NCBI RefSeq assembly: GCF_036365525.1
Contig: NC_090399.1
Location: 46,470,430-46,534,429, forward strand
Reading direction: 5' to 3'
DNA: 64,000 nucleotides
From: Heterodontus francisci
Lineage: Eukaryota
Positions 8,661 through 59,556 of the stretch are shown one piece after another. The notes under the pieces were generated by a model. It searched no databases. It saw only the letters and a program-made list of their open reading frames with translations, and was not told the origin of the DNA. The position numbers were made by a program, and so were the translations under genes. Position 1 is the first letter of the stretch. Every line of letters starts with the position of its first letter.

Positions 8661-9757
8661 GACACAACTCACAGACTGAGAGACACATTATCAGTACAGG
8701 ACACGGGTCACAGACTGAGAGACACAGTATCAGTACAGGACACGGTCACAGACTGAGAGACACAGCATCAGTACAGAACACGGGTCACAGACTGAGAGAC
8801 ACAGTATCAGTACAGGGCACAACTCACAGACTGAGAGACACAGTATCAGTACAGGACACGGGTCACAGACAGAGAGACACAGTATCAGTACAGGACACAG
8901 CTCACAGACAGAGAGACACAGTATCAGTACAGGACACAGCTCACAGACTGAGAGACACAGTATCAGTACAGGACACAGGTCACAGACTGAGAGACACAGT
9001 ATCAGTACAGGACACGGGTCACAGACTGAGAGACACAGTATCAGTACAGGACACAGGTCACAGACTGAGAGACACAGTATCAGTACAGGACACGGGTCAC
9101 AGACCGAGAGACACAGTATCAGTACAGAACACGGTCACAGACTGAGAGACACAGCATCAGTACAGGGCACAACTCACAGACTGAGAGACACAGTATCAGT
9201 ACAGGACACGGGTCACAGACAGAGAGACACATTATCAATACAGGGCACAGCTCACAGACTGAGAGGCACAGTATCAGTACAGGGCACAGCTCACAGACTG
9301 AGAGGGACAGTATCAGTACAGGACACGGGTCACAGACTGAGAGACACAGTATCAGTACAGGGCACAGCTCACAGACTGAGAGACACAGTATCAGTACAGG
9401 ACACAGCTCACAGACTGAGAGACACAGTATCAGTACAGGACACGGGTCACAGACTGAGAGACACAGTATCAGTACAGGACACGGGTCACAGACCGAGAGA
9501 CACAGTATCAGTACAGGACACAACTCACAGACCGAGAGACACAGTATCAGTACAGGACACGGGTCACAGACTGAGAGACACAGTATCAGTACAGGACACG
9601 GGTCACAGACCGAGAGACACAGTATCAGTACAGGACACAACTCACAGACCGAGAGACACAGTATCAGTACAGGACACGGGTCACAGACTGAGAGACACAG
9701 TATCAGTACAGGACATGGGTCACAGACCGAGAGACACAGTATCAGTACAGGACACAG
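8661..9757 (+). repeat. 39-bp VNTR (ACAGACTGAGAGACACAGTATCAGTACAGGACACGGGTC), about 28 copies
   Basis: Homogeneous tandem units ending about 80 bp before the ATG; 13-aa periodicity in the antisense ORF 9119-9640. Confidence 0.95.
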
Positions 9758-9836: not shown

Positions 9837-9885
9837 ATGATTGGTCTGATTGTGCTGGTCCTTCTATGTGGAGGGGGCTCTGCTG
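9837..9885 (+). CDS. MHC class I exon 1, signal peptide [16 protein letters not shown]
   Basis: ACAATGA start context, hydrophobic leader, G|GTGAGT donor, phase 1. Confidence 0.88.
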
Positions 9886-12800
9886 GTGAGTACTGGGGTC
9901 TGTGATGGGCAGTGTCAATCTGGGTAATGGGGCATTAACCCTTGGTCAGTGGGTAATGTGGTCTGAGAGGTTTTCAGTGCCAGGCTGGATACTGGGGGTG
10001 AGACGAAAAGAGAAAGACCGTAGTTGGGGCAGACTGGGGGGGGGGATCAGCCTGGTTTCTGAGAGACTGGGGCACGGGGCTGGAGAGTGAAGAACATAGT
10101 AACAGGAGCAGGTCGTTCAGCCCTTCGAGCATATTCTGCCTCTCAACTGGATCATGGCTGATCTGTAACACAACTCCACTTTCCACCTTTGCTCTCTTTG
10201 CCCTGATACCCTCTTCTAACAAAAATCTATTGCTGTCAGTTTTGAGAGCTCTAAGTGACTCCCAACATCCACAGCCTTTTGATGGAGAGAGTTCCAGATT
10301 TCCACTGCCCTTTGTATGAAAACAGTGTTTCCTGATTTCACTCCTGAACAGCTTGACTCTAACTTTAAAATGATGTTATCTGGTTCTCGATTTAACCACC
10401 AGATAAAATTGTTCCTCTCGATCTACCCTATTGAATCCTTTTAACATTTTAAACTCCTCGATCATTTCCTCACATTTCCCCACATTGAACAACATCTGCC
10501 ACAGTTTTATCTGCTCTATTAATCCATCAATGTTCTTCAGCACTTTCCTGTCACTGTCCACACAATTTACTGTGCTACCTGACTTAGTGTTGTGAGCAAA
10601 CTCAGATAAACAAGTCTCTGGGGTGAAATTCGGGAATGGCGCCCCCAGCTCACACTGTGTTCACAGCACAAGCTCAAATGCTGAGATCTGTGGAGCCTGG
10701 ATTTTTGGCCTTGCACCTCACCGTTCTCTAGATGATGCTGGAGGAGGAGGCCACACAGATTAGTGCCCCAGGTTCCAGCTAACTGATCGGGTTGGATCAC
10801 AGTGGGTCTGGAGGAGGAATGAGTGGGGCTCAGAATGAGTGGTGTGGGGTGCAGTTGAGGATTGGGGAGAGAGAACACAGGCCATGGGAATATCGTTTGG
10901 GGTTGGGAAAGATCTGTGGGATTGGAGGAATGGGGTTGTTACTTTTTTCTTCATTCATGTCCCTCTATGTCTGTTCAGTGTTTTGTGTTTGTCAAACATT
11001 TTTACCATTCTTTGAAGATATGTCAAGCAGGGTAGATACAGAGGAGGTGGTAAATGCAGTGTATTTGGATTTCCAAAAGGCATTCGATAAGTTGCCACAA
11101 AAAAGATTATGATTCAAGATAGCAGCTCCTGGTGTTGGGGGATATTCTTCTTCTTTGGCCTCCTTATCTCGAGAGACAATGGGTAAGCGTCTGGAGGTGG
11201 TCAGTGGTTTGTGGAGCAGCGCCTGGAGTGGCTATAAAGGCCAATTCTAGAGTGACAGGCTCTTCCACAGGTGCTGCAGAAAAATGTGTTTGTCGGGGCT
11301 GTTACACAGTTGGCTCTCCCCTTGCGCTTCTGTCTTTTTTCCTGCCAACTGCTAAGTATTTTCGACTCGCCACACTTTAGCCTCGCCTTTATGGCTGCCC
11401 GCCAGCTCTGGCGAACACTGGCAACTGACTCCCACGACTTGTGATCAATGTCACAGGACTTCATGTCACGTTTGCAGACGTCTTTAAAGCGGAGACATGG
11501 ACAGCCGGTGGGTCTGATACCAGTGGCGAGCTCGCTGTACAATGTGTCTTTGGGGATCCTGCCATCTTCCATGCGGCTCACATGGCCAAGCCATCTCAAG
11601 CGCCGCTGACTCAGTAGTGTGTATAAGATGGGGATGTTGGCCGTCTCGAGGACTTCTGTGTTGGAGATACGGTCCTGCCACCTGATGCCAAGTATTCTCC
11701 GGAGGCAGCGAAAATGGAATGAATTGAGACATCGCTCTTGGCTGACATACGTTGTCCAGGCCTCGCTGCCGTAGAGCAAGGTACTGAGGACACATTCTTG
11801 ATACACTCGGACCTTTGTGTTCCGTGTCAGTGCACCATTTTCCCACACTCTCTTGGCCAGTCTGGACATAGCAGTGGAAGCCTTTCCCATGCGCTTGTTG
11901 ATTTCTGCATCTAGGGACAGGTTACTGGTGATAGTTGAGCCTAGGTAGGTGAACTCTTGAACCACTTCCAGAGAGTGGTCGCCAATATTGATGGATGGAG
12001 CATTTCTGACGTCCTGTCCCATGATGTTCATTTTCTTGAGGCTGATGGTTAGGCCAAATTTATTGCAGGCAGCCGCAAACCTGTCGATGAGACTCTGCAG
12101 ACACTCTTCAGTGTGAGATGTTAAAGCAGCATCGTCAGCAAAGAGGAGTTCCCTGATGAGGACTTTCCGTACTTTGGACTTCGCTGCCCCCTGATCTTGT
12201 GTGGAGGAAAATTCCTTCTTCAGAAGACTTGAACACATGTGAGAGCAGCAGGGAGAAAAAAATCCCAAAAAGTGTGGGTGCGAGAACACAGCCCTGTTTC
12301 ACGCCACTCAGGACAGGAAAGGGGTCTGATGAGGTGCCGCTATGTTGAATTGTGCCTTTCATATTGTCATGGAATGAGGTGATGATACTTAGTAGCTTTG
12401 GTGGACATCCAATCTTTTCTAGTAGTCTGAAGAGACCACGTCTGCTGACGAGGTCAAAGGCTTTGGTGAGATCATGAAAGCAATGTAAAGGGGCATCTGT
12501 TGTTCGTGGCATTTCTCCTGTATCTGACGAAGGGAGAACAGCATGTCAATGGTCGATCTCTCTGCTCGAAAGCCACACTGTGCCTCAGGGTAGACGGGCT
12601 CGGTCAGCTTCTGGAGCCTGTTTAAAGCGACTTGAGCAAAGACTTTCCCCACTATGCTGAGCAGGGAGATTCCATGGTAGTTGTTGCAGTCACCGCGGTC
12701 ACCTTTGTATTTATAGAGGGTGATGATATTGGCATCACACATGTCCTGAGGTACTGCTCCCTCGTCCCAGCACAGGCATAGCAGTTCATGTAGTGCTGAG

Positions 12801-15800
12801 AGTATAGCAGGCTTGGCACTCTTGATTATTTCAGGGGTAATGCTGTCCTTCCCAGGGGCTTTTCCACTGGCTAGAGAATCAATGGCATCACTGAGTTCCG
12901 ATTTTGTTGGCTGTACGTCCAGCTCATCCATGACTGGTAGAGGCTGGGCTGCATTGAGGGCAGTCTCAGTGACAACCTTCTCCCTGGAGTACAGTTCTAG
13001 GTAATGCTCAACCCAGCAGTCCATTTGCTTGCGTTGGTCAGCGATTATGGCCCCTGATTTAGGGGGGCGATCTTCTTGATGGTTGGCCCAAAAGCTCTCT
13101 TAATGCCATCATACATTCCTCTGATGTTTCCGGTGTCTGAGGCCAGCTGAATATGACTGCATAGGTGTTGCCAGTAGTCATTTGCACAGCGCCTGGCTGT
13201 TCTTTGTGCAGTGCTTCTGGCTGCTTTAAGTGCTATGGATGTTAACTCGCTGGGGGCTTTCTTGTAGTTCAACAGTGCAATGCGCTTAGCGGCTATGACT
13301 GGTTCCAGCTCTTCAGTATGAGATTGAAACCAGTCTGAGTGTTGGGGGATATATTAACATGGATAGAGGATTGGTTAATTAACAGCAGCATTGTATCTGT
13401 CTTCAGCAGCACTTTGGGGATGATGTACGCGGGTCATCAACCATGCACAAAGTGGGTAACCCTTGTCACCCAGGATCCAGCCGTCCAGTTCGGCTGCTTC
13501 CGCAAAAACCCCTGGCAACTGTGAGTTTCTCAAAATGTATGATCGTGACAGCTCCCTGGGAAACGTGCACAAACGTGCGTTAATATTCTCCTGTGGTTAC
13601 AAACAACTTGTATGTTTAAAGAGTGGAAGCCTTTGTGATTCACAAATGCGGCAGGCTGGTCCCAGGGAGCTCTAATGGCCACATGAGGACAGTCGATCAC
13701 CCCTTACACTCCAGAGAACCCAATGGTTGTACCAAAGGCTGCAGAATTTATGTCTGGCTGTCCCTGTCTGCAGCTAAGTAGGTGAAATCATTGGCACGTC
13801 GAGAAAGAGCATGGGTCACCTCTTTGATAGACCTGTGAGTCGTCGACTGTGATATGCCACATATGTCACCCGTCGATCCCTGGAAGGTCCCGTTTGCAAC
13901 AGAAATTAAGTGCAGCGGTCACCTTGAGGGCAACTGGCATGTGATTCCCACTAAAGGTTGGCTCAGGCCTGCAACTGAAACCCAACCCGAGCCTGACAGA
14001 ACCACATCCGACCCGAGCCTGACCTGGTCCGGGTCCTTTCATTTTTTCCTGTGCCCGACACGACCTGACCCGACCACTGGAATGAAGTTGATTATACTAA
14101 AGAGGTTGTGCTCTACCTTGGATGGAATCGCTGACTGTAGACAAGTGCGGAGTCTGGATGTATGTTTCCCGCCTTGACGTCCTGGCTGTCAATGTGTCCA
14201 AGCTGGCCCGACCCGACCCGAGCCTGAATGCCGGACCCGGAAGAGGCACCCGACCCAAACCCGACATATGTCTTCGGGCCCGGTTGGGTTCGGGTCGGGT
14301 AGCCACGCTTTGATTCCCACCGAAGCTGAGTGGCTGCAGGTCATGCTGCAGGATCCTGTAAATTTCTGTGACCATTTCACGTGACATCCTCAGGGGTCTC
14401 TGGCATTGCCTCTCTGACATGTGAAGGTAATCTGCCCTTGTTCTTAGGATGTGATGATGTGCCAGTGTCTGTCTTCGATAAGGCCATTCCTGGATGTCCT
14501 CATTCGGAGTATCCTCACCTTCCTTTTCTGCCTGTTGCTGTCGTTCAGGCATCATGCATTGAGGGAAAAGAGCCCTCCTGAATCTCTCCCTTTGTTCTTC
14601 ATCCTGTGGTACGAGACAAATTGGGTGTATGAGACCAATGTCACTGTCGTCGTTCTTAACAATAAATAAGCAGAGTGTGGCAGTTCAGCCCTCTGTTACC
14701 AGTCAGCTGAAGCATCGAAGCAATGAACAGTTCATTTTTTATGTGCCTTAGATTTTCAGTCCAGTGAAAGACACACCGACTATTGTTTTCTCCTCCCACT
14801 CTCCTTGCAATCCATGAGTGGCCATGCGGCTTGTATTATTGGAGAAAATGGTGCGTCTAGAATTCAGGGCACCTCCCCTCACCTTCCAACCACCTCCTGC
14901 CACCGTCCAGCCTGAGCCCGTCATCTTTGACCCGCCAAATATAACCTTAACCATTCTCTTCATTACCATCGATCCTCTCCCAGTACCGTGCATAGTGTCA
15001 TAATCAACTGATTCGTGCCATTCCTTCCTCCCTTTTACTGGTCCCGTTGCTATCGATGAGCCAATTCTGACCCCGGAACCTCCTCACATCGACCTGACCA
15101 TTGTTGTCGAGTCCTGTTCCCCTCCCTTTCATATTTGTAGAATACACAACCCTAAGTCTTGACCTTCCCCCACCTACAGAATCCATTGATCCCCATTGAA
15201 TCTGACCATTCCATCCACCAGCCAGTATCCTGAATTCGCCCCACAGGTCCCTGATATTGACAGTGCTCATCCCTCCCTTTAGGCCCCTCATGACCATTTG
15301 CTGACTGCAAAACTCAAATCAACCCTCCACCTCAGAAGCTGCCCACAGCCAGCTTCAGCAGCAATAGCAACCACTGCCCACCCAGGACATTCCCCTCCTC
15401 CCTCCCCTACTCCTCCACGCAGCCAATCACCCCACCATCTCCTCTCCTCCTCCCTCCCCTGTTCCTCCATGAACTCGATCACTTTACCCTTTATCCTCCG
15501 CTTCTCCTCCCCTGCTCCTCCAGGCACCTGATCACCCCACCATGTCTTCCCCTCCTCCCTCCCCTACTCCTCCATGCAGCCAATCACCCCACCATGTCTA
15601 CCCCATCTTCCTCCCCTGCTCCTCCAGGCACCCGATCACCCCACCATGTCTTCCCCTCCTCCCTCCCCTACTCCTCCACGCAGCCAATCACCCCACCATG
15701 TTGACCCCATCTTCCTCCCCTGCTCCTCCAGGCACCCGATCACCCCATCATGTCTTCCCCATCTTCCTCCCCTGCTCCTCCAGGCACCCAATCACCCCAT

Positions 15801-18800
15801 CATGTCCTCCCCTCCTCCCTCCCCTGCTCCTCCAGGCACCCGATCACCCCACCATGTCCTCCCCTCCTCCCTCCCCTGCTCCTCCAGGCACCCGATCACC
15901 CCACCATGTCCTCCCCTCCTCCCTCCCCTGCTCCTCCAGGCACCTGATCACCCCACCATGTCTTCCCCTCCTCCCTCCCCTACTCCTCCACGCAGCCAAT
16001 CACCCCACCATGTCGACCCCATCTTCCTCCCCTGCTCCTCCAGGCACCCGATCACCCCACCATGTCCTCCCCTCCTCCCTCCCCTGCTCCTTCAGGCACC
16101 TGATCACCCCACCACGTCTTCCCCTCCTCCCTCCCCTACTCCTCCATGCAGCCAATCACCCCACCATGTCTTCCCCATCTTCCTCCCCTGCTCCTCCAGG
16201 CACCCGATCACCCCACCATGTCCTCCCCTCCTACCTCCCCTGCTCCTCCAGCCACCTGATCACCCCACCATGTCTACCCCTCCTTCCTCCCTTGCTCCTC
16301 CAGGCACCCGATCACCCCACCATGTCTTCCCCATCTTCCTCCCCTGCTCCTCCAGGCACCCGATCACCCCACCATGTCTACCCCATCTTCCTCCTCTGCT
16401 CCTCCAGGCACCCGATCACCCCATCATGTCCTCCCCTCCTACCTCCCCTGCTCCTCCAGGCACCCGAGCACTCCACCATGTCCTCCCCTCCTCCCTCCCC
16501 TGCTCCTCCAGGCACCCGAGCACTCCACCATGTCCTCCCCTCCTCCCTCCCCTGCTTCTCCAGGTACCCGATCACCCCACCATGTCCTCCCCTCCTCCCT
16601 CCCCTGCTCCTCCAGGCGCCCGAGCACTCCACCATGTCCTCCCCTCCTCCCTCCCCTGCTCCTCCATGTAAACACCCCCATGCCTTCACCGCCATCCGGC
16701 ACATTTCCAAAATAAGGGGTCTCCCTTTTTAGACAGAGATGAAGAGGAATTGCTTCTATGAACATCGGAACAGGAGTAGGCTATTCAGCCCATCGAGCCT
16801 GCTGCACCATCCAATTAGATAAGGCCGATCATCTCCCACAATGGCACTTTCCTGCACTATCCCCATATCCCTTGATGTCATTAGTATCCAGATATCTATT
16901 GATCTCTGTCTTGAACGTACTTAATGGCTGAGTCTCCACAGCCCTCTCCGTCGAGAATTTCAAAGATTCACCACCCTCTGAGTGAAGAAATTCCTCCATA
17001 TCTCAGTTTTAAATGGCCTCCTGCTTATTCTGAGATTATGTCACCAGCCAGGGGAAACATCCTATCTACAACTACCCTGTAACGCCCTCTAAAAATTTGT
17101 AAGTTTCAATGAGATGACCTCTCATTCTTTGAAACTCTAGAGAATACAGGCCCAGTCTCCTCAATCTCTCCTCATAAATCAATCCTGCCATCCCAGGGAT
17201 TAGTCTGGTGAAACTTCCTGGTAAGTTTATCCTTCCTTAGGTAAGGAGACCAAAACTGTACACAGTACTCAGAGAGTTGTGAATCTTTGGAATTCTCTTC
17301 CCCAGAGAGCAGTGCAGGCTGGGTCATTGAATATGTTCAAGGCTGAGTTTGGCAGATTTTTGATCTCCAAGGGAGTCATCAGGTTTTGGGATGGCAGGTC
17401 GGAAAGTGGAGTTAAGGCCACAATCTGAATAGCCATGATCTTATTGAATGGCAGAAAGGCTGAAGGGCCTGAATGGCCTCCTGTTCCTATTTCCTAGGTT
17501 CTTAGTTTCTTAGCTCATGTCCTGATGTGTCTCTCTCCCTCTCTCCCTCTGTGTTCAGAATCTCACCTTTTGCAGGGTTTTGCCACAATTACAACTCCGA
17601 TTCCCAATCTTCCGGAATTTGTGGCCGTTGGTTATCTGGATCAAATACAGGTTATTGTGTATGACAGCGATCGGAAGAGGGTGATCCTCCGGGATCGGTG
17701 GATGTTCATGAATACGTTACCCATATCCATGGATCAGATGGAACAGCTTTTGCAGGAAGCAGAGCAGGAACGGAACTTCAGTTTCGCATACCTCATGTCC
17801 CTGAACAAACAGACTGGTGGTGAGTTTGAGAGTGGGGCCGGCAAGGTGGACGTAGGTAGCAGTGGAGCAGGATCTGTGTTCCTGGGATGGAGATGTGTCC
17901 CTGGGGTGGAGCTCTGTGTCTTGGTGTGTTTGTGGGTGGGGCTGGGGAAAGGAGGTGGTGGAGCTCTGTATCTCTGGGGTAGAGAGAGATCGGTGTGCTG
18001 CAAATTCACAATCCTGTCCTTCCCCGCGTGATGTCATTACCTTTTGGACAAAGAAAATTCACATTGACATGATGTGCCTTTCTGTTCCCCCACATCTTCC
18101 TGTTTCCCCATGTCCTTCTATTCCAGCCCCATGTTTCTCTATTCCACCCCCATGTCTCACTATTCCCCCCGTCTCCCTCTATTCCCCCCGTCTCCCTCTA
18201 TTCTTCTTGTCTCCCTCTGCTCCTCTTTATGTCCCACTATTCCTCTTTGTGTCCCTCTATTCCTCCCCGTGTCCCTCAATTCCTCCCCGTGTCCCTCTAT
18301 TCTTCCCCGTGTCTCTCTAATCCCCTCCGTGTCTCTCTATTCCCGTGTCTCTGTATTCCCCCTGCATCGTGTCTCTATTCCTCTGTGTCTTTCTATCACC
18401 ATATCTCTGTACTCCCCGTGCATGTCTCTCTATTCCCCTGCCTTTGTCTCTCTATTCCCCCCGCGTGTCTCTGTATTCCCCCCCGCCCATGTCTCTCTCT
18501 TCCCGTGTCTCTCTATTCCCTCGCCTGTGTCTCTCTATTCCCATGTCTCTGTCTTCCCCTCCGTGTCTCTCTGTTCCCAAGTCTCTGTCTTCCCCTCCAT
18601 GTCTCTCTGTTCCCGTGTCTCTGCATTCCTCCTGCCTGTGTCTCTCTATTCCCCCGCTTGTGTCTCTGTTCCCGTGTCTCTGTATTCCCCCTGCCCGTGT
18701 CTCTCTATTCCTGTGTCTCTGTATTCCTGCCTGCCTGTGTTTCTCTATTCCCCCTGCCTTTTTCTCTCTGTTCCCGTGTCTCTATATTCCCTATATCCGT

Positions 18801-21800
18801 GTCTCTCTATTCCCGTGTCTCTGTACTCCCCCCCGCCTGTGTCTCTCCATTCCCCCACCTGTATCTCTCTATTCCTGTGTCTCTGTATTCCCCCCTGCCT
18901 GTGTCTCTCCATTCCACCGCCTGTGTCTCTCTATTACCGTGTCTCTCTATTCCCCTTGCCTGTGTCTCTCCATTCCCCCACCTGTGTCTCTCTATTCCCA
19001 TGTCTCTCTATTTCCCCTGCCTGTGTCTCTCTATTCCCGTGTCTTTGTATTCCCCCTGCCCGTGTCTCTCTATTCCTCCCATGTGTATCTCAATTCCCCG
19101 CGCGTGTCTCTCTAATCATCCCCCTGTGTCTCTATTTCCCCCAGTGTCTCTCTATTCCCCTGCTCACCAATGCTCAGTTTGGATTCTGCCAGGGTCATTC
19201 AGCTCCAGAGCAGATTACAGCTTTGATCCAAACATGAACAAAAGAGCTGAACTCAAGACATGAGGTTAGAGTGGCTGCTTTTGACATCAAGGCAGCATTT
19301 GACCGAGTGGCATCAAGGAGGCCTAGCAAAACCGGAGTCCATGGGAATCCAGGGGAAAAGTATTCACTGGTTGGAGTCATAACTAACACAAATGAAGATG
19401 GTTGTCGTTGTTGGAGGCAAATCATCTCAGCTCCAAGACATCACTGCAGGAGTTCCTCAGGGTTGTGTCCGAGGCCCAACCATCTTCAGCTGCTTCATCA
19501 ATGACCTTCCTTCCATCACAAGGTCAGAAGCGGGATGTTTGCTGATGCTGGCACAGTATTCAGTTCTATTTGCAACTCCTCAGATACTGAACATACAAAC
19601 ATGCAAACATATGAATTGGGAGCAGGAGTAGGCCACTCGGCCCCTCGAGCCTACTTTGCCATTCAATAACATCATGGCTGATCTGATTGTAACTCAACAC
19701 CACATTCCCGCCTCAACCCCCCCGATAACCTTTCACCCTCTTGCTTAACAAGAATGTATCTAGCTCTGCCTTAAAAATATTTAAAAACTCTGCTTCCACT
19801 GCCTTTTGAGGAAGAGAATTCCAAAGACTCACAACCCTCTGAGAGAAAAAATTCTCCTCATCTCTGTCTTAAATGTTTGCCCCCATATTTTTAAACAGTG
19901 ACCCCTAGTTCTAGATTCTCCCAGAAGGGGAAACATCCTTTCCACATCCACCCTGTCAAAACCCCTCAGGATCTTATATGTTTCAATCAAGTCGCATCTT
20001 ACTCTTCTAAACTGCAGTGGATACAAGCCTACCCTGTCCGACCTTTCCTTATAAGACAGCAGCCATTGCATGTATTAGTCTAGTAAACCCTCTCTGAACT
20101 GCTTCCAATATATTTACATCCTTCCTTTAATAAAGAGACCAGTACTGTACACAATACTCTAAATGTGGTCTCACTGGTGCCCTGTATAGCTGAAGCATAA
20201 CCTCCCTACTTTTGCATTCAATTCCCAGTGCAAAAAATGATTACATTCTATTTGCTTTCCTAATTACGTGCTGTACCTGCATACTAACCTTTTGTGGTTC
20301 ATGCACTAGGACACCCAGATCCCCCTGCATCTCAGAGCTCTGCAATCTCTCACCATTTTTCATTCTTCCTGCCAAAATGGACAATTTCACATTTTTCCAC
20401 ATTATACTCCATTTGCCAGATCTTTGTCCACTCACTTAACCAGTCTATATCCTTTTATAGCCTCCGTATAACCTCTTCACAACTTACTTTCCTACCTATC
20501 TTTGTGTCATCAGCAAATGTTGCAACCGTCCCTTCGGTCCCTTCATCCAAGTCATTTATATAAATTGTAAAATGTTGAGGCCTCAGCACTGATCCCTGTG
20601 GCACACCACTCATCTTGCCAACCAGAAAATGACCAATTTATGCCTATTCTCTGTTTCCTGTTAGCAAGCCAATCTTCTATCCATGCCAAATTTACACCAT
20701 GAACTTTTATTTTCCACAATAAACTTTGATGTGGTACCTTATCAAATGCCTTCTGGAAATCTAAGTGCAGTACATCCACCATACAGTCATAGAGTCATAG
20801 AGTTAGACAGCACAGAAACAGGTCCTTTGGCCCATTGTGTCTGTGCCAGCCATCAAGTACCTATCTATTCTAATCCCATTTTCCAGCACTTGGCCTGTAG
20901 CCTTGTATGCTATGGATTTTCAAGTGCTCATCTAAATACTTCTTAAATGTTGTGAGGGTTCCTGCCTCTACCACCCCTCAGGCAGTGTGTTCCGGATTCC
21001 AACCACAAAAACAAATTTACCTCAATTCCCCTCTAAACTTCCTGCCCCTTACCTTAAATCTATGCCCCCTGGTTATTGACCCTCTACGAAGGGAAAAAGT
21101 TTCTTCCTATCTATCCTATCAATGCCCCACATAATTTTGTATACCTCAATCAGGTCCCCCCTCAGCCTTCTCTGCTCTAAGGAAAACAACCCTAGACTTT
21201 TCAGTCTCTCTTCACAGCTGAAATGCTCCAGCCCAGGCAACATTTCCTCTGCACCCTCTCCAGGGCAATCACATCCTTCCTATAGTGTGGTGACCAGAAC
21301 TGTACACAGTACTCCAGCTGTGGCCTAACTATCATTTTATACAGCTCCATCATAACCTCCCTGCTCTTATATTCTATGCCTTGGCTAATAAAGGCAAGTA
21401 TCCCATCTGCCTTCCTAACCACCTTAGCTAACTGTGCTGCTGCCCTCAGTGATCTATGGACAAGTCCACCAAGGTCCCTCTGACCCAGTACTTCCTAGGG
21501 TCCTACCATCCATTGTATCCCTCCTGTCACGGTCTGTTTATCATTTCCCATATTAATACCTTTCTCTCTTGCCTTGCCTGTACTCTTTGATGTACCACAC
21601 CTTCTCAAATTTGACTCCTTGCCCCATTATTTAGTTTAAAATCCTCTGTACTTCTCTAGTTATGAGGCTTACCCGAATACCAGCTCCAGCATGGTTCAGG
21701 TGTGGACCGTCCCAATGGTACAGCCCCACTTTCCCCAGTACTGGTGCCAGTGCCCCACAAACTGGATCCCTCTTCTGCCACACCAGTCTTTGAGCCATGC

Positions 21801-24800
21801 ATTTATTTCTCTAATCTTATTTGTCCTATGGCAATTTGAAGATGGCTCAGGTAATAATCCAGAGATTATTACCTTTGAGGTTCTGCTTCTTAATTTGCTG
21901 CCTAGCTCCTCATACTGACTATGCAGAACCTCCTTCCTTGTCCTGCCTATGTTATTAGTACTGCCATGGATCACAGTGACTGGATCCTTCCCCTGTCACT
22001 GTAAGTTCCTCTCCAGCCCTGAGCATGAGGCAAGCAACAGAGCTGTCTGGACTCTCACTCTTGGCTGCAGAGAACAGTGTCAATCCCCCTCACTATAATA
22101 TACCCTACTACTACTACATTCCTTTTTGCTCCCCCCACTTGAATAGCTCTCTGTACTATGGTGCCATGGTCAGGTTTCTCATCCACCCTGCAGCCCCCAT
22201 TTTCATCCAAACAAGCTGATAGAACCTCAAAAACTGTTGGACAATCACAAAGGCTGAGGCTGCTGCACTCCTGCCCTCTGGGTCCCCGGACCTGCCTCAG
22301 CCTAAGCGACACTCTCCTGTCCCTGACCGCTGACCAAATCAGAAGACCCTATCCTAAGGGGTGTGACCACCTCCTGGAACAAAATGTCCAGGTAACCTTT
22401 CCCCTCCCTAATGTGTGCAGTGTCTGCAGTTTGGCCTCCAGCTCAAAAACTCTGAGCCGAAGCTCCTCGAGCCACAACACGGCCTGCAGCCATGTTTGCC
22501 CTGGATCTCACTGGCATCCAGGAGCTCCCACATGCTACAGCCATGAAACATCACCTGTCCTGCCATCCTTAATGTGTTTGAATGAATGACTTAATTATTT
22601 TATTCACTTATTTCTTTTCCTTTTATATATATTATTCGCCTTACCACCAGTTCCTGTACTATTTTAAACCTTAAGAATTGAATAGATTAGATTTAACTAC
22701 TTACCAGATATTCACCAAATGGCTAGTTTCTTCCCCTGTAGTCAAGAACCAAATCCTATAAGGTGAAAAAGTAAGAAAATGCAAAGGAGCACCTCCTTCC
22801 CCTCCTCACCGAACTCCCGCAATTCACCAAACTCCTAGCACTCTGTTCATGTCACACTTAATCGCTTTTTAACAATCTAATTAGTAACCTATTTAAATGA
22901 TCAGTTTTAAGTAATACCTCTAGTCTTGCTCTGCGCTTATACTCTCATAACAACACTTACTGTTACACTACTCAGTTGAATATTTTTAATTTCCCAGGTC
23001 ATAATTTGAACTAATACACTCCCTGCTGGTCACTCTCTCTCACTCTGTATGATAAATTATAAAATCTGCATCAGCTTTTAGTTTATATATTAATGAATCA
23101 ATCAAGTCTTATTTCAGATTTGATTGATTTCGATTACATTAAATTAAAGCCTTACCCTGGCTGCTTTCAGTTCCCCTGCTATCTCTATGTTGATTGTAGC
23201 GTCACTCTGATGTCACTTTTAATTTTTTTTCCCGCGCTGCTCCCGCTGCGCTCTCTCTCTCTGCAGTCCGTGAATCTGGCCATGCCTGCATGCATGCATG
23301 TAATATTTCTTGTCCCATGGTGTGTGATCTGTTGTTAAAATTCACAGGAACTCAAGTAATATTCAAAATAAATGTGGGGTTTTATTATAACAGAACTGGA
23401 ACATATATACATAATAGTAACTGCATGAGCTCGTCTTGAACACATCTTACTGTCGCAGGCTCCATCCACAACTAACTGTTTTGGTGTGACTTGACATCAC
23501 TTCCTCTGATGATAGAACCATAGAAAAGTTACCGCACAAAAGGAGGCCATTCAGCCTGTCGTGTCTGCGCTGGACGAAAAATCTAACTACTGAATCTAAT
23601 GCTACCTCCCTGCAGCGGCACAGTGGTTAGCACCGCAGCCTCACAGCTCCAGCGACCCGGGTTCAATTCTAGGTACTGCCGGTGTGGAGTTTGCAAGTTA
23701 TTCCTGTGTCTGCGTGGGTTTCCTCCGGGTGCTCTGGTTTCCTCCCACAGCCACAGGTTGATAGGTAAATTGGCCATTATAAATTGCCCCTAGTATAGGT
23801 AGGTGGTAGGGGAATATAGGGACAGATGAGGATGTGGTAGGAATATGGGATTAGTGTAGGATTAGTATAAATGGGTGGTTAATGGTCGTCACAGACTCTG
23901 TGGGCTGAATGGCCTGTTTCAGTGCTGTATCTCTTAAAAAAAAACCTTGCACTTCAGGTGCACGTCCAGGTACCTTTTAAAAAAATTGAGGGTTTCTGCC
24001 TCCACCACCGTTCCTGGCAGTGAATTCCAGACACCCACCACCCTCTGAGTGAAAAGGTTTTTCCTCATGTCCCCTCTAATCCTTCCACCAATCACCTTAA
24101 ATCTGTGCCCCCGGTAATTGACCTCTCCACCAGGAGAAACAGGTCCTTCCTGTCTACTCTCTCTTGGCCCCTCATAAGTTTGTACAACTCAGTTTAAGTT
24201 ACCACTCAATCTCCTGTGTTCTAAGGACAACAACCCTAGTCGATCCAATCTTTCCTCATAGCCCTGGCAGAATTCTTGTAAATCTCCTCTGTACTCTCTC
24301 CAGAGCGATTAGAAATGAGATGAGGAGAAATTTCTTCACTCAAAGGTTTGTGAATCTTTGGAATTCCCTATCCTAGAGAGCTGTGGACCATCAGTCATTC
24401 AGTTTATTTAAGACAGAGGTTGATAGATTTTTGGCTACTAAGGGAATTAAGGGATAGGGGGATAGTGCAGGAAGGTGGAATTGAGGTAGAAGATCAGCCA
24501 TGATCATATTGATTGGTGGATCAGGCCCGATGGGCCAAATGGCCTGCCCCTGCTCCTATTTCTGATGTTTGTCTGTTCCTATGAAAGGTTTTGGGGAGTG
24601 TTGAGGTGTGTTAGTCACCACAGAATTCCCAACCTCTGACCTGCTATTGTAGCCACAGTATTTATGTGGTTGGTCCAGTTTAGTTTCTGGTCAGTGGTGA
24701 CAGCCCCCAGGATGATGATGGTGGGGGAATTCGACAAGTTATGCTGGTCATCGAATGGTAGGCGGGGTCTCAGGACTGCATCTGATTGGCTGTATGTGTG

Positions 24801-27237
24801 CTTGATTGACAGGGATACACACATTGCAGGTGAGGACTGGCTGTGAGCTAAAGGATGACGGGAGCAAGACTGAGTTCCTCCAGTTGGGCTGGGATGGCCA
24901 AGACATGATGACCTTCGACCCAGAGAAGGCGGAGTGGGTGGCACAGGCACCATGGGCACACACTGCCCAGGACAATTGGAATCAGGACAGGGCCCTCAAC
25001 CAGCTGTGGAATTTCTATCTGAAAGAGTTGTGCATCCAGTGGCTGAGGTCTTGTCTGCAGCACAAAGATCAAATACTGAGACCCAGTGAGTGATTGAGGG
25101 GACGGGAACTGAGTGAGTGAGGGGGGGTGACTGAGTGAGTGAGGGGGGGACTGAGTGAGTGAGGGGGGGACTGAGTGAGTGAGGGGGGAACTGATTGAGT
25201 GAGGGGGGGCTGATTGAGTGAGGGGGGGCTGATTGAGTGAGGGGGGAACTGAGTGAGTGAGGGGGGGAACTGAGTGTCTGAGTGAGGGGGGGACTGAGCG
25301 TTGGGGAGTGAGGGGGGTACTGAGAGTCGGGGAGTGAGGGGCAGACTGAGAGTCGGGGAGTGAGAGGGAGACTGAGAGTCGGGGAGTGAGAGGGAGACTG
25401 AGAGTCGGGGAGTGAGGGGGAGACTGAGAGTCGGGGAGTGAGAGGGAGACTGAGAGTCGGGGAGTGAGAGGGAGACTGAGAGTCGGGGAGTGAGGGGGAG
25501 ACTGAGAGTCGGGGAGTGAGGGGGAGACTGAGAGTCGGGGAGTGAGGGGGAGACTGAGAGTCGGGGAGTGAGAGGGAGACTGAGAGTCGGGGAGTGAGGG
25601 GGAGACTGAGAGTCGGGGAGTGAGGGGGAGACTGAGAGTCGGGGAGTGAGGGGGAGACTGAGAGTCGGGGAGTGAGGGGGAGACTGAGAGTCGGGGAGTG
25701 AGGGGGAGACTGAGAGTCGGGGAGTGAGGGGGAGACTGAGAGTCGGGGAGTGAGGGGGAGACTGAGAGTCGGGGAGTGAGGGGGAGACTGAGAGTCGGTG
25801 AGTGAGGGGGAGACTGAGAGTCGGTGAGTGAGGGGGCGACTGAGAGTCAGTGAGTGAGGGGGGGGGTCTGAGTGTCAGTTAGTGGGGTATTCTCTGAGTG
25901 AGGGTCAGTGAGTGACTCTCTATATTGGAGATCCTGTATTGATTCCACTTTCTCTCTCTCTCAGTCGCCCCCATCGTGTCCTTTACCCGTCCGGGTGATC
26001 CTAACCGGTTGTCCTGTGTCGTCACCGGGTTTTACCCTCCAGACATTGAGGTGACTCTGTGGAGAGATGAACTTTTGATCGATGAGACCCTATCCTCTGG
26101 GATCTTACCCAATCACAATAACACCTTCCAGATCCAGAAATGGACGGAGTTTGTTCCGGAAGACCAGGCCGTGTATTCCTGTCGGGTGGAGCACCGTGCA
26201 CTGAGGGAGACAATGGTGGTGATTTATGGTAAGACTGTCTCTCACTGTTAGAGGGGACCCAGCCTCAGAACAGGAGCACAGGAGGGAGGGTCAGTGCTGA
26301 GCTGTCAGCCCGGAACAGGCTGAGGCCCAGGATACAAAGAGAGGGAAATAACTATTAACTTTCAATGTCCTCAGTGTCTGACCAACTCTCTATCACCCTC
26401 TCTGTCTGTCCCTGTCCCTACCCCCTCCTATCCCACTCTTTCCTCACCCTCTCTCACAATCCCTATTGCCCTCTCTCTGTCTGTCCGTGTCCCGACCCCC
26501 TCCTTCCTTGCTCTCTCCCCTTCACACACTCCATATTTCCCTCAGTCTGTCCCTGCCCCTGTCCCTATCACCACATTCCCTCTCTCTCCGCCCCCTCTGT
26601 CATACTCTGCTTCTCCTTCTCCCTCTCTGTGTCTCTCTCTGATTGTCTCTCTGTTTCTCACTGACAGGTCCCCAGTCAGACTCCCAGGTCCCTGTTATTC
26701 TCGGTATTGTGTTTGGGATTGTGCTGGTCATCATTCTCATTATCCTGGCTTTCTTCATCTACAAAAAGAGAGGTAGGAATTGGAGAGGTAATGAACTGAT
26801 GCTTGTCAGGAGAGGTGGGGCCAGAGTGACGGTGGGGGGTGGGAATATGGGTGCTGGAGTCCAGGGTGAGGGAGGTGAGTGGGAATGGGGGTGCTGGGGC
26901 CCAGTATGATGCTGATGGTGTTTATGGTGTGTGTTCTGGGTCTGATGGGTTTTGTTGCTGGTATTTGTGGGGTGTGTTTTCGGGGTCTGATCGGTTTTGC
27001 TGCTGGTATTTGTGTAGGTACGTTTTCGGGGTCTGTTGGGTTTTGTTGCTGGTATTTGTGGGTGTGTCCTGTGTCTGATATGTTTTCCTTTCTCTATGAT
27101 CATGTATTTATCTCTCTTCCCCAGTGGCCTCCTGGGTCCCAACTGGAACTCCAGGGACTTCAGCACATGGAGGTCAGCAGGTGAACTGGATGAAAGAATC
27201 GGGGAGTGTGTCATTTCATCACAGTGACACTGCGTGA
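9837..27237 (+). CDS. Non-classical MHC class I heavy chain gene (6 coding exons, about 354 aa); shark UEA/UCA-like candidate
   Basis: Leader, alpha1, alpha2, alpha3, TM and cytoplasmic exons join in frame through GT-AG phase-1 introns (49+261+273+264+105+113 = 1065 nt) with no internal stop. Canonical alpha2 and alpha3 cysteines are present. The last exon is the least certain. Confidence 0.92.
11146..13338 (-). mobile_element. 5'-truncated RTE-clade LINE with 14-bp TSD, inserted into a CR1 fragment in intron 1
   Basis: RT ORFs ([15 protein letters not shown]; [10 protein letters not shown]; [10 protein letters not shown]) and C-terminal [17 protein letters not shown]. Short (GAA)n tail. GTGTTGGGGGATAT occurs at both 11132-11145 and 13339-13352. 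Confidence 0.93.
13386..14720 (-). mobile_element. PIF/Harbinger transposase remnant
   Basis: [14 protein letters not shown]...AAEDRYNAA (13375-13572) and [24 protein letters not shown] (about 14330-14460), both HARBI1-like motifs. Confidence 0.8.
13952..14312. mobile_element. hAT-like MITE with ACCCG subterminal repeats and 8-bp TSD, inside the Harbinger remnant
   Basis: ATTCCCAC at 13944-13951 and 14313-14320; imperfect TIRs TAAAG...CTTTG; many ACCCGA/TCGGGT motifs. Confidence 0.75.
15390..16670 (+). repeat. C-rich minisatellite (about 53-59 bp units, CCTCCCCTGCTCCTCCAGGCACCCGATCACCCCACCATGTC...)
   Basis: Tandem units; Pro-rich ORFs in all three forward frames. Confidence 0.92.
16755..17510. 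mobile_element. Two CR1 3'-end fragments in opposite orientation, just before exon 2
   Basis: GAACAGGAGTAGGCTATTCAGCCC (minus-strand CR1 3' end) and + strand AGAGTTGTGAATCTTTGGAATTCTC...GAATGGCCTC. Confidence 0.6.
17559..17819 (+). CDS. MHC class I exon 2, alpha1 domain
   Basis: Pyrimidine tract and TTCAG| acceptor. Encodes [48 protein letters not shown]...[11 protein letters not shown]|GTGAG donor. Confidence 0.93.
18075..19160 (+). repeat. Degenerate CT-rich tandem repeat (GTGTCTCTCTATTCCCC-type)
   Basis: Low-complexity pyrimidine-rich tandem units. Confidence 0.9.
19590..23100 (-). mobile_element. Internally deleted CR1 LINE (RT 3' part, ORF1 SGNH-esterase remnant, 5' UTR) with a nested CR1 3' fragment at about 20783-21510
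   Basis: [13 protein letters not shown] (20552-20782). ORF1 GSTNNIGRT...VIISGLLP...INAWLKDWC (21696-22312). The stretch at about 22780-22840 resembles the CR1 5' region at 59380-59430. Confidence 0.8.
23611..23943 (+). mobile_element. HE1-like tRNA-derived SINE
   Basis: A-box-like GGCACAGTGGTTAGC and B-box GGTTCAATTC; CR1-like 3' tail GGCCTGTTTCAGTGCTGTATCTC followed by an A-run. Confidence 0.85.
24813..25085 (+). CDS. MHC class I exon 3, alpha2 domain
   Basis: GACAG| acceptor. Encodes [16 protein letters not shown]...[11 protein letters not shown]...W...[14 protein letters not shown]...LRP with C101/C164 equivalents. A|GTGAGT donor. Confidence 0.95.
25090..25870 (+). repeat. G-rich minisatellite filling intron 3 (about 20-bp units grading into 26-bp AGACTGAGAGTCGGGGAGTGAGGGGG)
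   Basis: Direct tandem units. Confidence 0.95.
25965..26228 (+). CDS. MHC class I exon 4, alpha3 Ig-C1 domain
   Basis: Encodes [20 protein letters not shown]...LPNHNNTFQ...YSCRVEH. Acceptor TCTCAG|, donor G|GTAAG. Confidence 0.96.
26668..26772 (+). CDS. MHC class I exon 5, connecting peptide and transmembrane helix
   Basis: Encodes [35 protein letters not shown]. Acceptor GACAG|, donor G|GTAGG. Confidence 0.92.
27125..27237 (+). CDS. MHC class I exon 6, cytoplasmic tail (3' boundary uncertain)
   Basis: Strong acceptor TCTCTCTTCCCCAG|. Phase-1 reading gives [37 protein letters not shown] (TGA 27235-27237). Internal donors at 27173 and 27181 could be used instead. Confidence 0.6.
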
Positions 27238-28388
27238 TTGATGGCGTCTCTACATCTGTGACTCTGTATTTGGGATTGTGGGGGAGGGGCGGAGGATCTC
27301 CCTGAGACCTTCAGTCCCAGGGGGCTGTCGGGGTAGGTGGGTGGTCTGCTCCCGACACCTTCATTCTGGGGCTGGGGACAGCACTGACCCATAGGCTGAA
27401 GCCACATGGAGGGGGAGGGGTTATCGCTGGGAGATCAGGCAAACTGTGCACCAGAGATTTATTTCTGTTGTACATTTACAGGAGCTGAGACAGAGACATA
27501 CATGGGGCCGAAGAGTATCAGTGAAACACCACCTCCTCAATGCTTTGTTTGTATTTTTAATGGCCTTACTAACCTGCACCATTACTTTAATGATTTGTCC
27601 ATCTGTCCCCCTAGATCGCTTTACTCCTCTACCCCTTTTACTCTAGTTTTTCCAATTTATTACTTTTATCTTTTTTTTTTACATCCTTCTCAATCATTGT
27701 CTTAAACCTTTTGATGATGTGATCGCTATTGCCTTGATGATCCCTACATTTAATTCTCTTACCAATGCTGGTTCATTCCCCATTGTCAGATAGAAGATTA
27801 TGTTGATAGAGTGAGATGAAGAGGTGGGAGGAAGCTCATGTGGATCATAAACACTGGCATAGACCAGTTAGGGGTGAATGGTCTGTTTCTGTGCTGTACT
27901 TTCTATGTTATTCTATCCATCAAATTCATGGCAGTGGCTGCACAGTCTGAGATCTGCTTTCTCTTTACCTCCTTTCTGTTCTCCCCTTCTCAAAACCTCT
28001 TTGTTCCAGTCAATAACATTTTTGCTATACTCCCCCATGATGGATGTGTAATATTTATAAAAGATGAAGGATTTTATTTGTTTAATTCTCCCTCCTCTCC
28101 CACTTTTCCTCAGTTATTTAAGGATTATAAAAGAAATGTTGCTCTCATATCTTTTTCTTGATAGATTTGTACTTCCTGTCGAGTTTCCAATGAGCAGCAA
28201 CCAGTGGCATTTGCTGTGCTCCAGCCCTGACCGAATATCTCCAGCCACAATCCAAGTAGCTCATAAACATCTCCCTCTGTCTATGGTCCATCATTTACTC
28301 CTCAGTAACTCCCAAACCCTAATCCTGTTTGTTCTGTCACTCGCACCTCGCGTTTTTTATGAATTTAGTTTCATGATGTATTTTGGAT

Positions 28389-37714: not shown

Positions 37715-39090
37715 TATTGCGGGTGTGTGGTTTATTACTGTGTGTGTGGTTTATTACTGTGTGTGTGATTTATTACTGGGTGTGTGATTTATTACTAGGT
37801 GTGAGGTTTATTACTGGGTGTGAGGTTTATTACTGTGTGTGTGATTTATTACTGTGTGTGTGATTTATTACTGGGTGTGAGGTTTATTACTGGGTGTGAG
37901 GTTTATTACTGGGTGTGTGGTTTATTACTGGGTGTGTGGTTTATTACTGGGTGTGTGGTTTATTACTCTGTGTGAGGTTTATTACTCTGTGTGTAGTTTA
38001 TTACTGGGTGTGAGGTTTATTACTGGGTGTCAGGTTTATTACTGGGTGTGAGGTTTATTACAGGGTGTGAGGTTTATTACTGAGTGTGTGATTTATTACT
38101 GGGTGTGTGATTTATTACTGGGTGTGTGATTTATTACTGGGTGTGTGATATATTACTGGGTGCGTGATTTATTACTGGGTGCGTGGTTTGTTACTGAGTG
38201 CGTGGTTTGTTACTGGGTGTGTGGTTTGTTACTGGGTGTGTGGTTTGTAACTGGGTGTGTGGTTTGTAACTGGGTGTGTGGTTTGTAACTGGGTGTGTGA
38301 TTTATTACTGGGTGTGTGATTTATTACTGTGTGTGAGGTTTATTACTGGGTGTGTGATTTATTACTGGGTGTGTGGTTTATTACTGGGTGTGTGATTTAT
38401 TACTGGGTGCGTGGTTTGTTACTGGGTGTGTGGTTTGTTACTGGGTGTGTGGTTTGTTACTGGGTGTGTGGTTTATTACTGGGTGTGTGGTTTATTACTC
38501 TGTGTGTGGTTTATTACTGGGTGTGAGGTTTATTACTGAGTGTGTGATTTATTACTGGGTGTGTGATTTATTACTGGGTGTGTGATTTATTACTGGGTGT
38601 GTGATATATTACTGGGTGCGTGATTTATTACTGGGTGCGTGGTTTGTTACTGAGTGCGTGGTTTGTTACTGGGTGTGTGGTTTGTTACTGGGTGTGTGGT
38701 TTGTTACTGGATGTGTGGTTTGTAACTGGGTGTGTGATTTATTACTGGGTGTGTGATTTATTACTGCGTGTGAGGTTTATTACTGGGTGTGTGATTTATT
38801 ACTGGGTGTGTGAATTATTACTGGGTGTGTGGTTTATTACTGGGTGTGTGATTTATTACTGGGTGTGTGGTTTGTTACTGAGTGTGTGGTTTGTTACTGG
38901 GTGTGTGGTTTGTTACTGGGTGTGTGATTTATTACTGGGTGTGTGATTTATTACTGGGTGTGTGGTTTGTTACTGAGGGAGTGGTTTGTTACTGGGTGTG
39001 TGGTTTGTTACTGGGTGTGTGATTTATTACTGGGTGTGTGATTTATAACTGGGTGTGTGGTTTTTTACTGGGTGCGTTGTTTATTATTGG
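37715..39090 (+). repeat. 19-bp minisatellite (CTGGGTGTGTGGTTTATTA), inverted relative to the other blocks
   Basis: About 70 tandem units. Confidence 0.95.
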
Positions 39091-57900: not shown

Positions 57901-59556
57901 GGCCTTATTTACTAGTTCCCCCTCATTTATTTCACTTGCTGTCCTACTGCTCTGGTTCCCACCCCCCTGCCACACTAGTTTAAACCCTCCCGAGTGACAC
58001 TAGCAAACTTCGCAGCCAGTAAGTTTGTGCCCCTCCAGTTTAGATGCAACCTGTCCTTCTTGTACAGGTCCCATCTGTCCATGAAGAGAGCCCAATGGTC
58101 CCGATATCTGAAACCCTCCCTTCTACACCAGTTGTTCAGCCACGTGTTTAGCTGCACTATCTTCCTATTTCTAGCCTCACTGGCACGTGGCACAGGGAGT
58201 ACACCCGGGATTACAACCCTGGAGGTCCTGTATTTTAACTTTCTACCAAACTCCCTAAACTCCCCCTGCAGGACCTCATCACTCTTCCTGCCTATGTCGT
58301 TGGTACCGATGTGTACCACAACCTCTGGCTGTTCACCCTCCCCCTTCAGAATGCCCCCTGTCTGTTCAGAGACATCCTTGACCCTGGCACCAGGGAGGCA
58401 ACATACCTTCCTGGCGTCTCTTTCACGTCCACAGAAGCGCCTATCTATGCCCTTGACTCTCGAGGCCCAATTAACTATTGCTCTTCTGCGCTTTGTCCCT
58501 CCCTGCTGAACAACAGTGCCAGCCGTGGTGCCACTGCTTTGGCTGCCGCTGTTTTCCCCTGATAGGCCATTCCCCCTCAACAGTATCCAAAACGATATAC
58601 TTGTTAGAGAGGGGGATAGCCACAGGGGATTCCTGCACTGACTGCCTGCCCCTTCTGGCTGTCATCCATCTACCTGCCTGTACCTTGGGTGTAACCACTT
58701 CTCTGAAACTCCTGTCTATGACGCTTTCCGTCACCTGCATGCTCCTAAGTGCATCCAGTTGCTGCTCCAACCGATCCATGTGGTCTGTGATGAGCTGCAC
58801 TTGGTACACTTCCTGCAGATGTAGTCATCCGGAACGCTGGAAGCGTCTCGGACCTCCCACATCTCACAGGTGAAGCACTTCACCCCTCTAACTGACATTT
58901 CTAGCACTAATTAAAAAATTAATTTAAAATAAATAAATGCTTATTAAATCCTTACTAAATTGTTATAATTAACAATATGGTCCCAAATGCTAGATTCCTA
59001 CTATAAATATTAAATGCTAACTAAATACAGTAATCTCCTCCCTCTGGTTTAGTTACTCTACTTATTAATTAGTTAATTAGGGTTTTAATCAATTTTTATC
59101 AATGTTTTATTTTCAAATTCAGTAAAAATTCCCGACCAGCCAATCAGGTCACAGCTTTCCTGTGATGTCACTTTCAGTTTTTTTTACCAGATGTAGGTTT
59201 TTTATACTTACCGGTCTGGAACTCCGCCCTTCAAGTCTTCTCCCTGGATGCAGGCCACAAAACCCCGAGGTAAGTTTTTTTATACTTACCGGTCTGGAAC
59301 TCTGCCCTCCAAGTCTTCTCCCAGTCAGCTGTGCTCTTTGGAAGCTCTCGGTTCTCCTCACTCTGAGGACAGGTAGGAAATGAAAGGAGCTCCTCACTCC
59401 CTCCTCACTGAACTTCCTCAGTTACCAAACTTCCACTATAGCATTCTAATGCAACCCAAGTCAGCACACTAGTGCAAACAAAGTCAGCACTGCAGGATGG
59501 CTCACTTTTATACTGACTGACTCTAGCCACTGAAAACTGGTTTAAGCCAATTGTCT
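54968..59556 (-). mobile_element. Near full-length CR1 LINE (5' UTR, ORF1 with SGNH esterase domain, ORF2 APE endonuclease plus RT), frameshifted
   Basis: ORF1 CCLPGARVKDV...VVHIGTNDIG...DRLHLN (57975-58809). APE motifs FNARSI, ITETWL, GDFN, LDLVL, SDHN. RT motifs [22 protein letters not shown]. (AAGAACA)n 3' tail at 54968. Confidence 0.93.

Follow-up and report, generated by a model that had tools for sequence, protein, structure and literature searches.

The window analysed here is a stretch of 64,000 nucleotides from the horn shark Heterodontus francisci (contig NC_090399.1, positions 46,470,430 to 46,534,429; 46.47-46.53 Mb of the contig referred to as C29). [quoted passage not shown] Judged from its sequence, gene A is an intact non-classical class I gene that belongs to a divergent, four-copy sister branch of horn shark UBA. 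It comprises six exons on the + strand, every intron is of the GT-AG type, and the joined exons translate exactly to the RefSeq model XP_067865829.1 (P0003, 354 aa), which bears out the intact reading frame claimed by a previous sequence-only reading of the window. Exon 1 (9837..9885) encodes a signal peptide, near-identical to the leader of a paralog. Exon 2 (17559..17819) encodes the alpha1 domain (Pfam MHC_I, E 7e-8; best PDB match 6lup), exon 3 (24813..25085) the alpha2 domain (MHC_I, E 9e-18) and exon 4 (25965..26228) an alpha3 immunoglobulin (Ig) C1 domain of UBA type (Pfam C1-set, E 2e-15). The connecting peptide and transmembrane helix (residues 289-319 in the model) are encoded by exon 5 (26668..26772), and a cytoplasmic tail without Tyr, ending in TGA in the RefSeq model, by exon 6 (27125..27237). 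Leader, alpha1, alpha2, Ig C1-type alpha3, transmembrane segment and tail on separate exons, together with the class I fold described below, are the features of an MHC class I heavy chain. The span 17559..25085, to which the sequence-only reading assigned the molecule, runs from the exact start of the alpha1 exon to the exact end of the alpha2 exon. An alternative cytoplasmic tail could arise at 27172-27560, where the tail exon shows a possible inner splice donor and a candidate acceptor lies near 27481.

Transcript evidence was sought in three runs, guessed to be RNA and derived from one sample of one study, over positions 16700-18050 (alpha1 only). Contigs from runs X1 and X2 matched 17559-17820 with no mismatch and continued past both ends (by 167 and 43 bases in X1), a contig from run X3 matched 17559-17741, and 17850-18050 had no coverage in the three runs. 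This is probably the pattern of a spliced transcript, the exons assigned to the run-on bases being presumptive. The gene, whose silence would have spoken against the sequence-only reading, therefore appears to be transcribed, as contigs of probable RNA runs match the alpha1 exon and leave it at the splice sites. No variant was observed among the alpha1 contigs of this single sample.

The numbering used below is that of human leukocyte antigen (HLA) molecules, assigned by eye from alignments, and 37 positions are counted as the groove. Gene A aligned to the nurse shark classical class I molecule 6lup with E 6e-69 and one single-residue gap across the ectodomain. All substitutions proposed from the sequence alone were found in this alignment (G7, S59, M60, M63, L84, M123, A143, N146 and C171). 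W147, Y159 and W167 were retained as claimed, in the alignment as well as in the residue tables, and the motifs HTLQ, DGQD, LPN, TFQ and WMFM were all located; LPN and TFQ sit in the alpha3 exon (26105 and 26123), beyond the span of the sequence-only reading. Exon 2 also carries A9 and A70, and exon 3 carries L114, L116 and L163 and keeps both structural cysteines. Eight canonical anchors of the peptide ends are described for class I molecules, namely Y7, Y59, Y/R84, T143, K146, W147, Y159 and Y171 (PMC4364491), and gene A retains two of them, W147 and Y159. The glycosylation site at N86 is gone (NKQT) and a new N-F-S sequon occurs at about position 75 on the alpha1 helix. In alpha3, an Asp that is 95% conserved (position 246 of XP_067865829.1) is replaced by Asn, creating an N-N-T site.

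An AlphaFold model based on a 105-row alignment gave a normal class I fold with a mean predicted local distance difference test score (pLDDT) of 87.4; it was used in place of a single-sequence model, which was unusable (pLDDT 40.8). The ectodomain block of lowest confidence was residues 61-70 (pLDDT 73), at the remodelled start of the alpha1 helix. The top structural match of the model was classical 6lup, and domain lengths and helices were as in classical class I. Foldseek gave many matches to MR1, which were rejected as a sign of metabolite binding, since they reflect sequence identity and redundancy and 6lup ranks first. The residues of the platform underside agree with UBA and UAA: of 13 positions checked, position 32 among them, 12 carry the commonest UBA residue, and position 94 is T in gene A. 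The product would be predicted to pair with beta2-microglobulin and to reach the cell surface.

Part of the anchor loss is older than gene A. Among 35 canonical UBA rows, Y59 was found in none, T143 in two and K146 in six, and position 63 was K instead of E in 31; since these three anchors are already mostly absent in UBA, half of the anchor loss of gene A is the ordinary UBA state. Three to six anchors were kept in 30 of the 35 rows and two or fewer in five, position 7 being cut off by truncation in three rows. The losses new to the gene A branch concern residues that UBA generally retains: Y7 (30/32), R84 (26/35), Y171 (29/35), K63 (31/35) and E163 (30/35). Both K63 and E163 have become hydrophobic in gene A and in its intact paralog, paralog C (P0002). 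W60, present in 34 of the 35 UBA rows, is lost in gene A and retained in paralog C. The K63 and E163 conserved in canonical UBA might bridge across the groove, similar to the roof reported in YF1 and Mamu-B*098.

The groove of gene A had a mean hydropathy of 1.52 (rank 2 of 51 rows), with only two charged residues in 37 positions and 24 of the 37 being A, V, I, L, M, F or C; that of paralog C had 1.42 (rank 4 of 51). Compared with the mean of the 35 UBA rows, the groove of gene A was shifted by +0.93 and the remainder of alpha1/alpha2 by -0.07 (permutation p 0.014), and the corresponding values for paralog C were +0.83 and +0.06 (p 0.040). The hydrophobic groove proposed from the sequence alone was thus confirmed, and the shift is specific to the groove. 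Two UBA proteins of Mustelus asterias, P0020 (groove hydropathy 1.84) and P0017 (1.50), are equally extreme, nearly anchor-free and without the N86 sequon; they are placed elsewhere in the UBA tree and apparently arose apart from the horn shark branch. Another long-branched UBA subgroup, shared by carpet sharks (P0027 of Stegostoma and P0035 of Hemiscyllium), has a single extra residue inserted in alpha2.

Querying with the last part of alpha2 together with alpha3 gave 46 matches out of 71 candidates, of which eight were from horn shark, 36 came from 11 further shark species, with no ray represented, and two were distant. They included nurse shark AAC60347, labelled UBA in the PMC10751288 supplement, and horn shark AAC60348. 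No counterpart of the gene A branch was found among the 36 matches from the 11 other species, and the residues shared by the branch occurred in none of the 32 other-species shark matches with an alpha2 domain, as compared by eye in a search that was not exhaustive. In word-based protein searches, neither alpha1 (33 candidates) nor residues 1-135 of P0001 (11 candidates) retrieved anything but gene A and paralog C, which is weak evidence of absence. Ten matches of a 50%-representative search were read by eye and none was branch-like, though such a search would hide orthologs within gene A's own cluster.

Searching the horn shark genome along contig C29 and elsewhere gave 36 alpha2, 31 alpha1 and 44 alpha3 class I exon matches in all, as lower bounds, and the loci were labelled by eye against the references in supplement file 10 of PMC10751288. 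On C29, UBA genes lie at 32-42.9 Mb, UFA-, UDA- and UEA-like genes at 50-53 Mb, a UAA-2-like array at 57-63 Mb and UAA-like genes at 66-67 Mb. "UEA-like" here means the multicopy group at 52-53 Mb that matched the Gcirratum_UCA row by eye, the supplement file having no row labelled UEA. Ten near-identical UAA-2-like alpha2 exons (L014-L023) were recorded, seven on C29 at 57.4-62.8 Mb and three on the unplaced contigs C815, C1290 and C1655; the copy examined had eight of eight anchors and a different alpha3 type.

Gene A is very probably an offshoot of UBA, as judged by its trees. In the 23-row tree, gene A and paralog C fell inside the UBA clade with the reference UBA AAC60347 (support 100/98), and approximately unbiased (AU) tests on this tree rejected their grouping with UAA (p 0.006), with the UEA-like pair (p 0.004) and with UFA (p 0.017; long branches are in play). 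The 50-row tree and the 36-row single-domain trees, from which 16 named rows were dropped, agreed on UBA and disagreed on the place within it; the alpha1 and alpha2 protein trees supported UBA more weakly. In horn shark DNA trees the cluster was sister to the canonical UBA paralogs for alpha1 (97.9/100), alpha2 (100/100), alpha3 (94.3/94) and third positions (99.5/100). Nesting within the horn shark UBA paralogs, suggested by the 50-row tree and the alpha2 tree, was dropped because the 23-row tree leaves the position open and the DNA trees give a sister relationship. Synonymous distances hinted that exon shuffling might have brought in alpha1/alpha2 from UAA, which was likewise rejected, as the third-position trees join these exons to UBA. 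For the alpha3 domain of gene A, identity was 78% with horn shark AAC60348, 67% with the nurse shark UBA sequence AAC60347 and 52-66% with three UAA rows; in the comparison of alpha3 exons it was 74-79% with eight of horn shark UBA and 61-66% with three UAA-like ones. The resemblance to UEA and UCA put forward by the sequence-only reading did not hold, since protein and DNA trees both give UBA and the AU test speaks against the UEA-like genes (dogfish UCA was compared by eye). Nor does the gene lie within classical UAA, and proper alignment did not restore the anchors.

Four related copies were found within 46.12-46.57 Mb. Gene A and paralog C (46.12-46.15 Mb) are intact, one copy has an alpha1 exon with a 1-nt insertion, and one has an alpha2 exon with 27-nt and 1-nt deletions. 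A further intact alpha2/alpha3 pair (L002/L062, 46.245 Mb) lies 98 kb from the frameshifted alpha1 exon, which has its own leader (L036, 46.344 Mb), and the 30 kb upstream of the pair yielded no alpha1 closer to it. The copies diverge most in alpha1, where gene A and paralog C are 50% identical against 87% in alpha3. Because paralog C carries I7, retains W60 and has Asp at position 95 of the floor, its ligand may differ from that of gene A.

On C29 the canonical UBA genes (32-42.9 Mb) are located between C4-like genes (30.9 and 31.9 Mb) and a putative RXR-type exon at 44.5 Mb. This corresponds to the published arrangement, in which the UBA cluster is flanked by c4 and rxrb (PMC10751288). The gene A cluster (46.1-46.6 Mb) lies beyond the RXR-type exon, outside the published UBA interval, with a third C4-like gene at 46.03-46.08 Mb, the thioester-domain exon of which is 46 kb from the cluster. 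For white shark and catshark, the PMC10751288 supplement lists no MHC class Ib gene between SLC39A7 and the large Ib cluster. A block of C4 and UBA may have been moved or duplicated. The three C4-like genes (C29 30.91, 31.82 and 46.07 Mb; L142, L144 and L141) carry H, D and M, respectively, at the putative catalytic residue, a position that we assigned from the motif. In horn shark the C4-like genes with D and H are neighbours, and the one with M lies beside the gene A cluster. Catalytic residues described for C4 are H, D and N/S/R, and in white shark the gene with D maps to the class Ia region (PMC10751288).

The window also holds repeats. Pfam fragments of reverse transcriptase/endonuclease were found at 11204-13099 (-), 43065-43961 (+) and 55489-57704 (-), probably remnants of long interspersed nuclear elements (LINEs), one of them in intron 1 of gene A. 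An open frame at 57978-58661 (-) with a match to GDSL-like lipase/acylhydrolase (E 2.5e-12) lies just upstream of a LINE-like endonuclease frame and is probably the first open reading frame (ORF1) of a transposon. Long minisatellite arrays occupy 8669-9755, 15391-16666, 18105-19163, 25255-25862, 37721-39090 and 61584-63627, with periods of 39, 52, about 20-60, 26, 19 and 33, and one array stops about 80 bases ahead of the start codon of gene A.

What gene A might display can be approached from its groove. The claim that it is not a conventional peptide presenter was supported to the extent that binding of classical 8-10-mers is disfavoured, because both end-anchoring networks are lost: with Y7, Y59 and Y171 gone the N-terminus of a peptide would not be fixed, and with R84, T143 and K146 gone neither would its C-terminus. 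The likeliest of the readings considered is that gene A, by analogy with chicken YF1, would display a lipid-like ligand, to which we give a probability of about 45%. In this mechanism G7, A9, A24, A70, V97 and T99 would leave room in the A/B region, which would be lined by M63, L66, L67, L114, L116, M123 and L163. The most likely cargo would be a single-chain lipid or an acylated small molecule, with E73, R74 and S77 holding the polar head, and it might be shown to an innate-like T cell or a natural killer (NK)-type receptor. Two precedents are known: in Mamu-B*098, small residues at 9, 70, 97 and 99 form an acyl pocket with room for a myristoyl chain (PMC4735555), and YF1*7.1 has a hydrophobic groove that binds acyl-glycines and N-myristoylated peptides (PMC2998441, PMC12212280). 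A lipid without a free peptide end would fit gene A better than a lipopeptide, because both of these molecules keep Y7 and F-pocket anchors and gene A does not. A YF1-like function would then have been reached independently of CD1, UFA and UGA.

Several observations weigh against lipid display. The likeness to YF1 and Mamu-B*098 is a loose match, given the several anchors they keep. The whole-domain hydropathy of gene A was -0.45 (rank 8 of 51), far below that of the UFA-like gene (-0.09), and T99 is the common UBA state (21/35 rows), so it reflects no special adaptation. A wide fold search gave Z 23.8-24.9 for UGA, CD1-1, HFE, ZAG and two peptide binders, so that lipid and peptide binders tie. 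The groove dN of 0.44 against a dS of 0.30 between gene A and paralog C rests on about six synonymous changes. On the terminal branch of gene A, 46 non-synonymous and 11 synonymous changes were counted (pN/pS 1.19, p 0.75 against neutrality), by simple parsimony on three sequences, which does not separate relaxed constraint from diversifying selection. The branch of paralog C had pN/pS 0.61 (p 0.07), and four canonical UBA branches had 0.22, 0.37, 0.49 and 0.77. Positive selection was not demonstrated. Together with the two broken copies among four, the high terminal ratio would suit a relaxed UBA duplicate drifting to a pseudogene, in which anchor loss is decay and not new function. Such decay, which we consider rather unlikely, is also consistent with changes at 17 of 74 conserved columns (W60, N86, G175 and the alpha3 Asp included) and with the lack of a counterpart in the 11 other shark species searched; under neutrality, a frame would stay open after 57 substitutions with a probability of 0.09, indels ignored. 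Against decay speak a hydrophobic shift that is confined to the groove and common to gene A and paralog C, three domain exons without an indel in either gene, spliced contigs, and the many derived residues common to all cluster members that have the exon concerned. Moreover, the changes specific to gene A avoid conserved columns (p 0.024), as do those of paralog C (p 0.012), although at highly conserved columns the count for gene A was 6 against 10.2 expected, just p 0.06.

HLA-E with its leader peptides and H2-M3 with formyl peptides are models of a molecule that still binds peptides, in this case a restricted range of hydrophobic or N-modified ones, gripped mostly by side chains, W147 and Y159. 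W147, Y159, W167 and S77 are retained, classical domain lengths and helices with 6lup as the top structural match agree with it, and UBA derives from the peptide-binding UAA (PMC12562908). We nevertheless regard it as unlikely, since both end-anchoring networks are lost (two of eight anchors), whereas 30 of the 35 UBA rows keep 3-6, and a comparable loss in teleosts was read as non-peptide or no ligand (PMC4364491). Alternatively, bulky hydrophobic side chains on both helices (M63, L66, L67, Y80, L81, L152, L155, W156 and L163) could close the groove, and the molecule would then serve an NK-type receptor, or one of another kind, as its ligand or have a non-immune role. HFE, MIC and FcRn are such class I molecules without antigen; in the fold search HFE is among those sharing first place (Z 24.5, root-mean-square deviation 3.6, 264 aligned), and the new sequon stands on the alpha1 helix. 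The small floor residues G7, A9 and A24 would leave an unfilled hole in a closed groove, and the divergence of gene A and paralog C mostly in alpha1 is what diverging ligand specificity would predict, which makes an empty groove quite unlikely. That gene A is a misaligned classical UAA gene, or a member of UEA, UCA or UFA, is very improbable. In synonymous distance, alpha1/alpha2 are no farther from two UAA-like genes (0.56-0.68) than from UBA (0.60-1.10), and the alpha2 exon resembles UAA in its LRP end and its GCEL; the near gap-free alignment to 6lup, however, confirms the substitutions, the AU tests reject all three groupings, the exon DNA trees join UBA with support of 94-100, and the genes with 7-8 anchors are 20 Mb away.

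Lipid display by gene A would bear on how class I grooves change function. Shark class Ib lineages are described as of unknown function (PMC10751288). The suggestion of a new sublineage stood, as gene A appears to represent an undescribed branch of UBA, but that of an undescribed system did not, since anchor-poor UBA also occurs in Mustelus and UFA and UGA have already been described as lipid-binding (PMC12562908). No description of the branch was found in the literature within reach, which did not extend to the primary papers on shark class Ib lineages, where it may be described; nor was any paper since 2023 found on the horn shark genome assembly and the MHC. A more far-reaching view, which must be called doubtful, is that the branch ranks with the named lineages, was moved with a C4 of unusual catalytic residue to a new MHC site, and, independently of CD1, UFA and UGA, remade a groove of the peptide type to bind lipids. 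If so, together with the separately derived anchor-free UBA of Mustelus, it would show that lipid presenters arose in sharks repeatedly out of genes of class Ia descent. If the branch binds lipids, one genome would hold UAA (7-8 anchors), ordinary UBA (mostly 3-6) and the gene A branch (two) with closely related alpha3 domains, a stepwise series for testing the conversion of a peptide groove to a lipid groove, and chicken YF1 would have a parallel in sharks. If the gene is decaying instead, it would be a common example of the birth-and-death turnover of clustered class I genes.

Among known systems, the reference UBA genes (AAC60347 and AAC60348) are the nearest to gene A, with which they share a clade in all trees, equal exon lengths, multicopy and MHC-linked organisation and, like most UBA, the lack of Y59, T143 and K146. 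Gene A differs in its long stem (0.44-0.49 changes per site), in alpha1/alpha2 domains just 37-49% identical to theirs, in the additional lack of Y7, R84, Y171, the K63/E163 pair and the N86 sequon, and in its position on the other side of RXR from the C4-RXRB interval. Shark UEA and UCA are also non-classical, MHC-linked and partly without anchors, but the UEA-like genes at 52-53 Mb are 22/28/43% identical to gene A, keep four of eight anchors, and their groove is less hydrophobic (about -0.1). Shark UFA and UGA are given as lipid-binding class Ib molecules in a personal communication (PMC12562908). The gene A model aligns to both of these CD1-like structures (PDB 8gm8 and 9ch4; Z 19.8 and 24.9); the horn shark UFA-like gene, however, is 20-34% identical per domain and its joint grouping with gene A was rejected, UGA standing outside the trees. 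Mamu-B*098 has small residues at 9, 70, 97 and 99, where gene A has A, A, V and T, but it anchors the peptide C-terminus by Y84, T143 and K146 and keeps Y7, all four of which gene A has lost. The closest functional model is chicken YF1*7.1 (MHC-Y), likewise a class I molecule of classical descent with a hydrophobic groove. It would not be an ortholog, given the UBA placement of gene A (YF1 was outside the trees), and it keeps Tyr7, Arg82, Thr139, Trp143 and a Lys64-Glu156 roof, whereas gene A keeps just the Trp and has no such charge pair.

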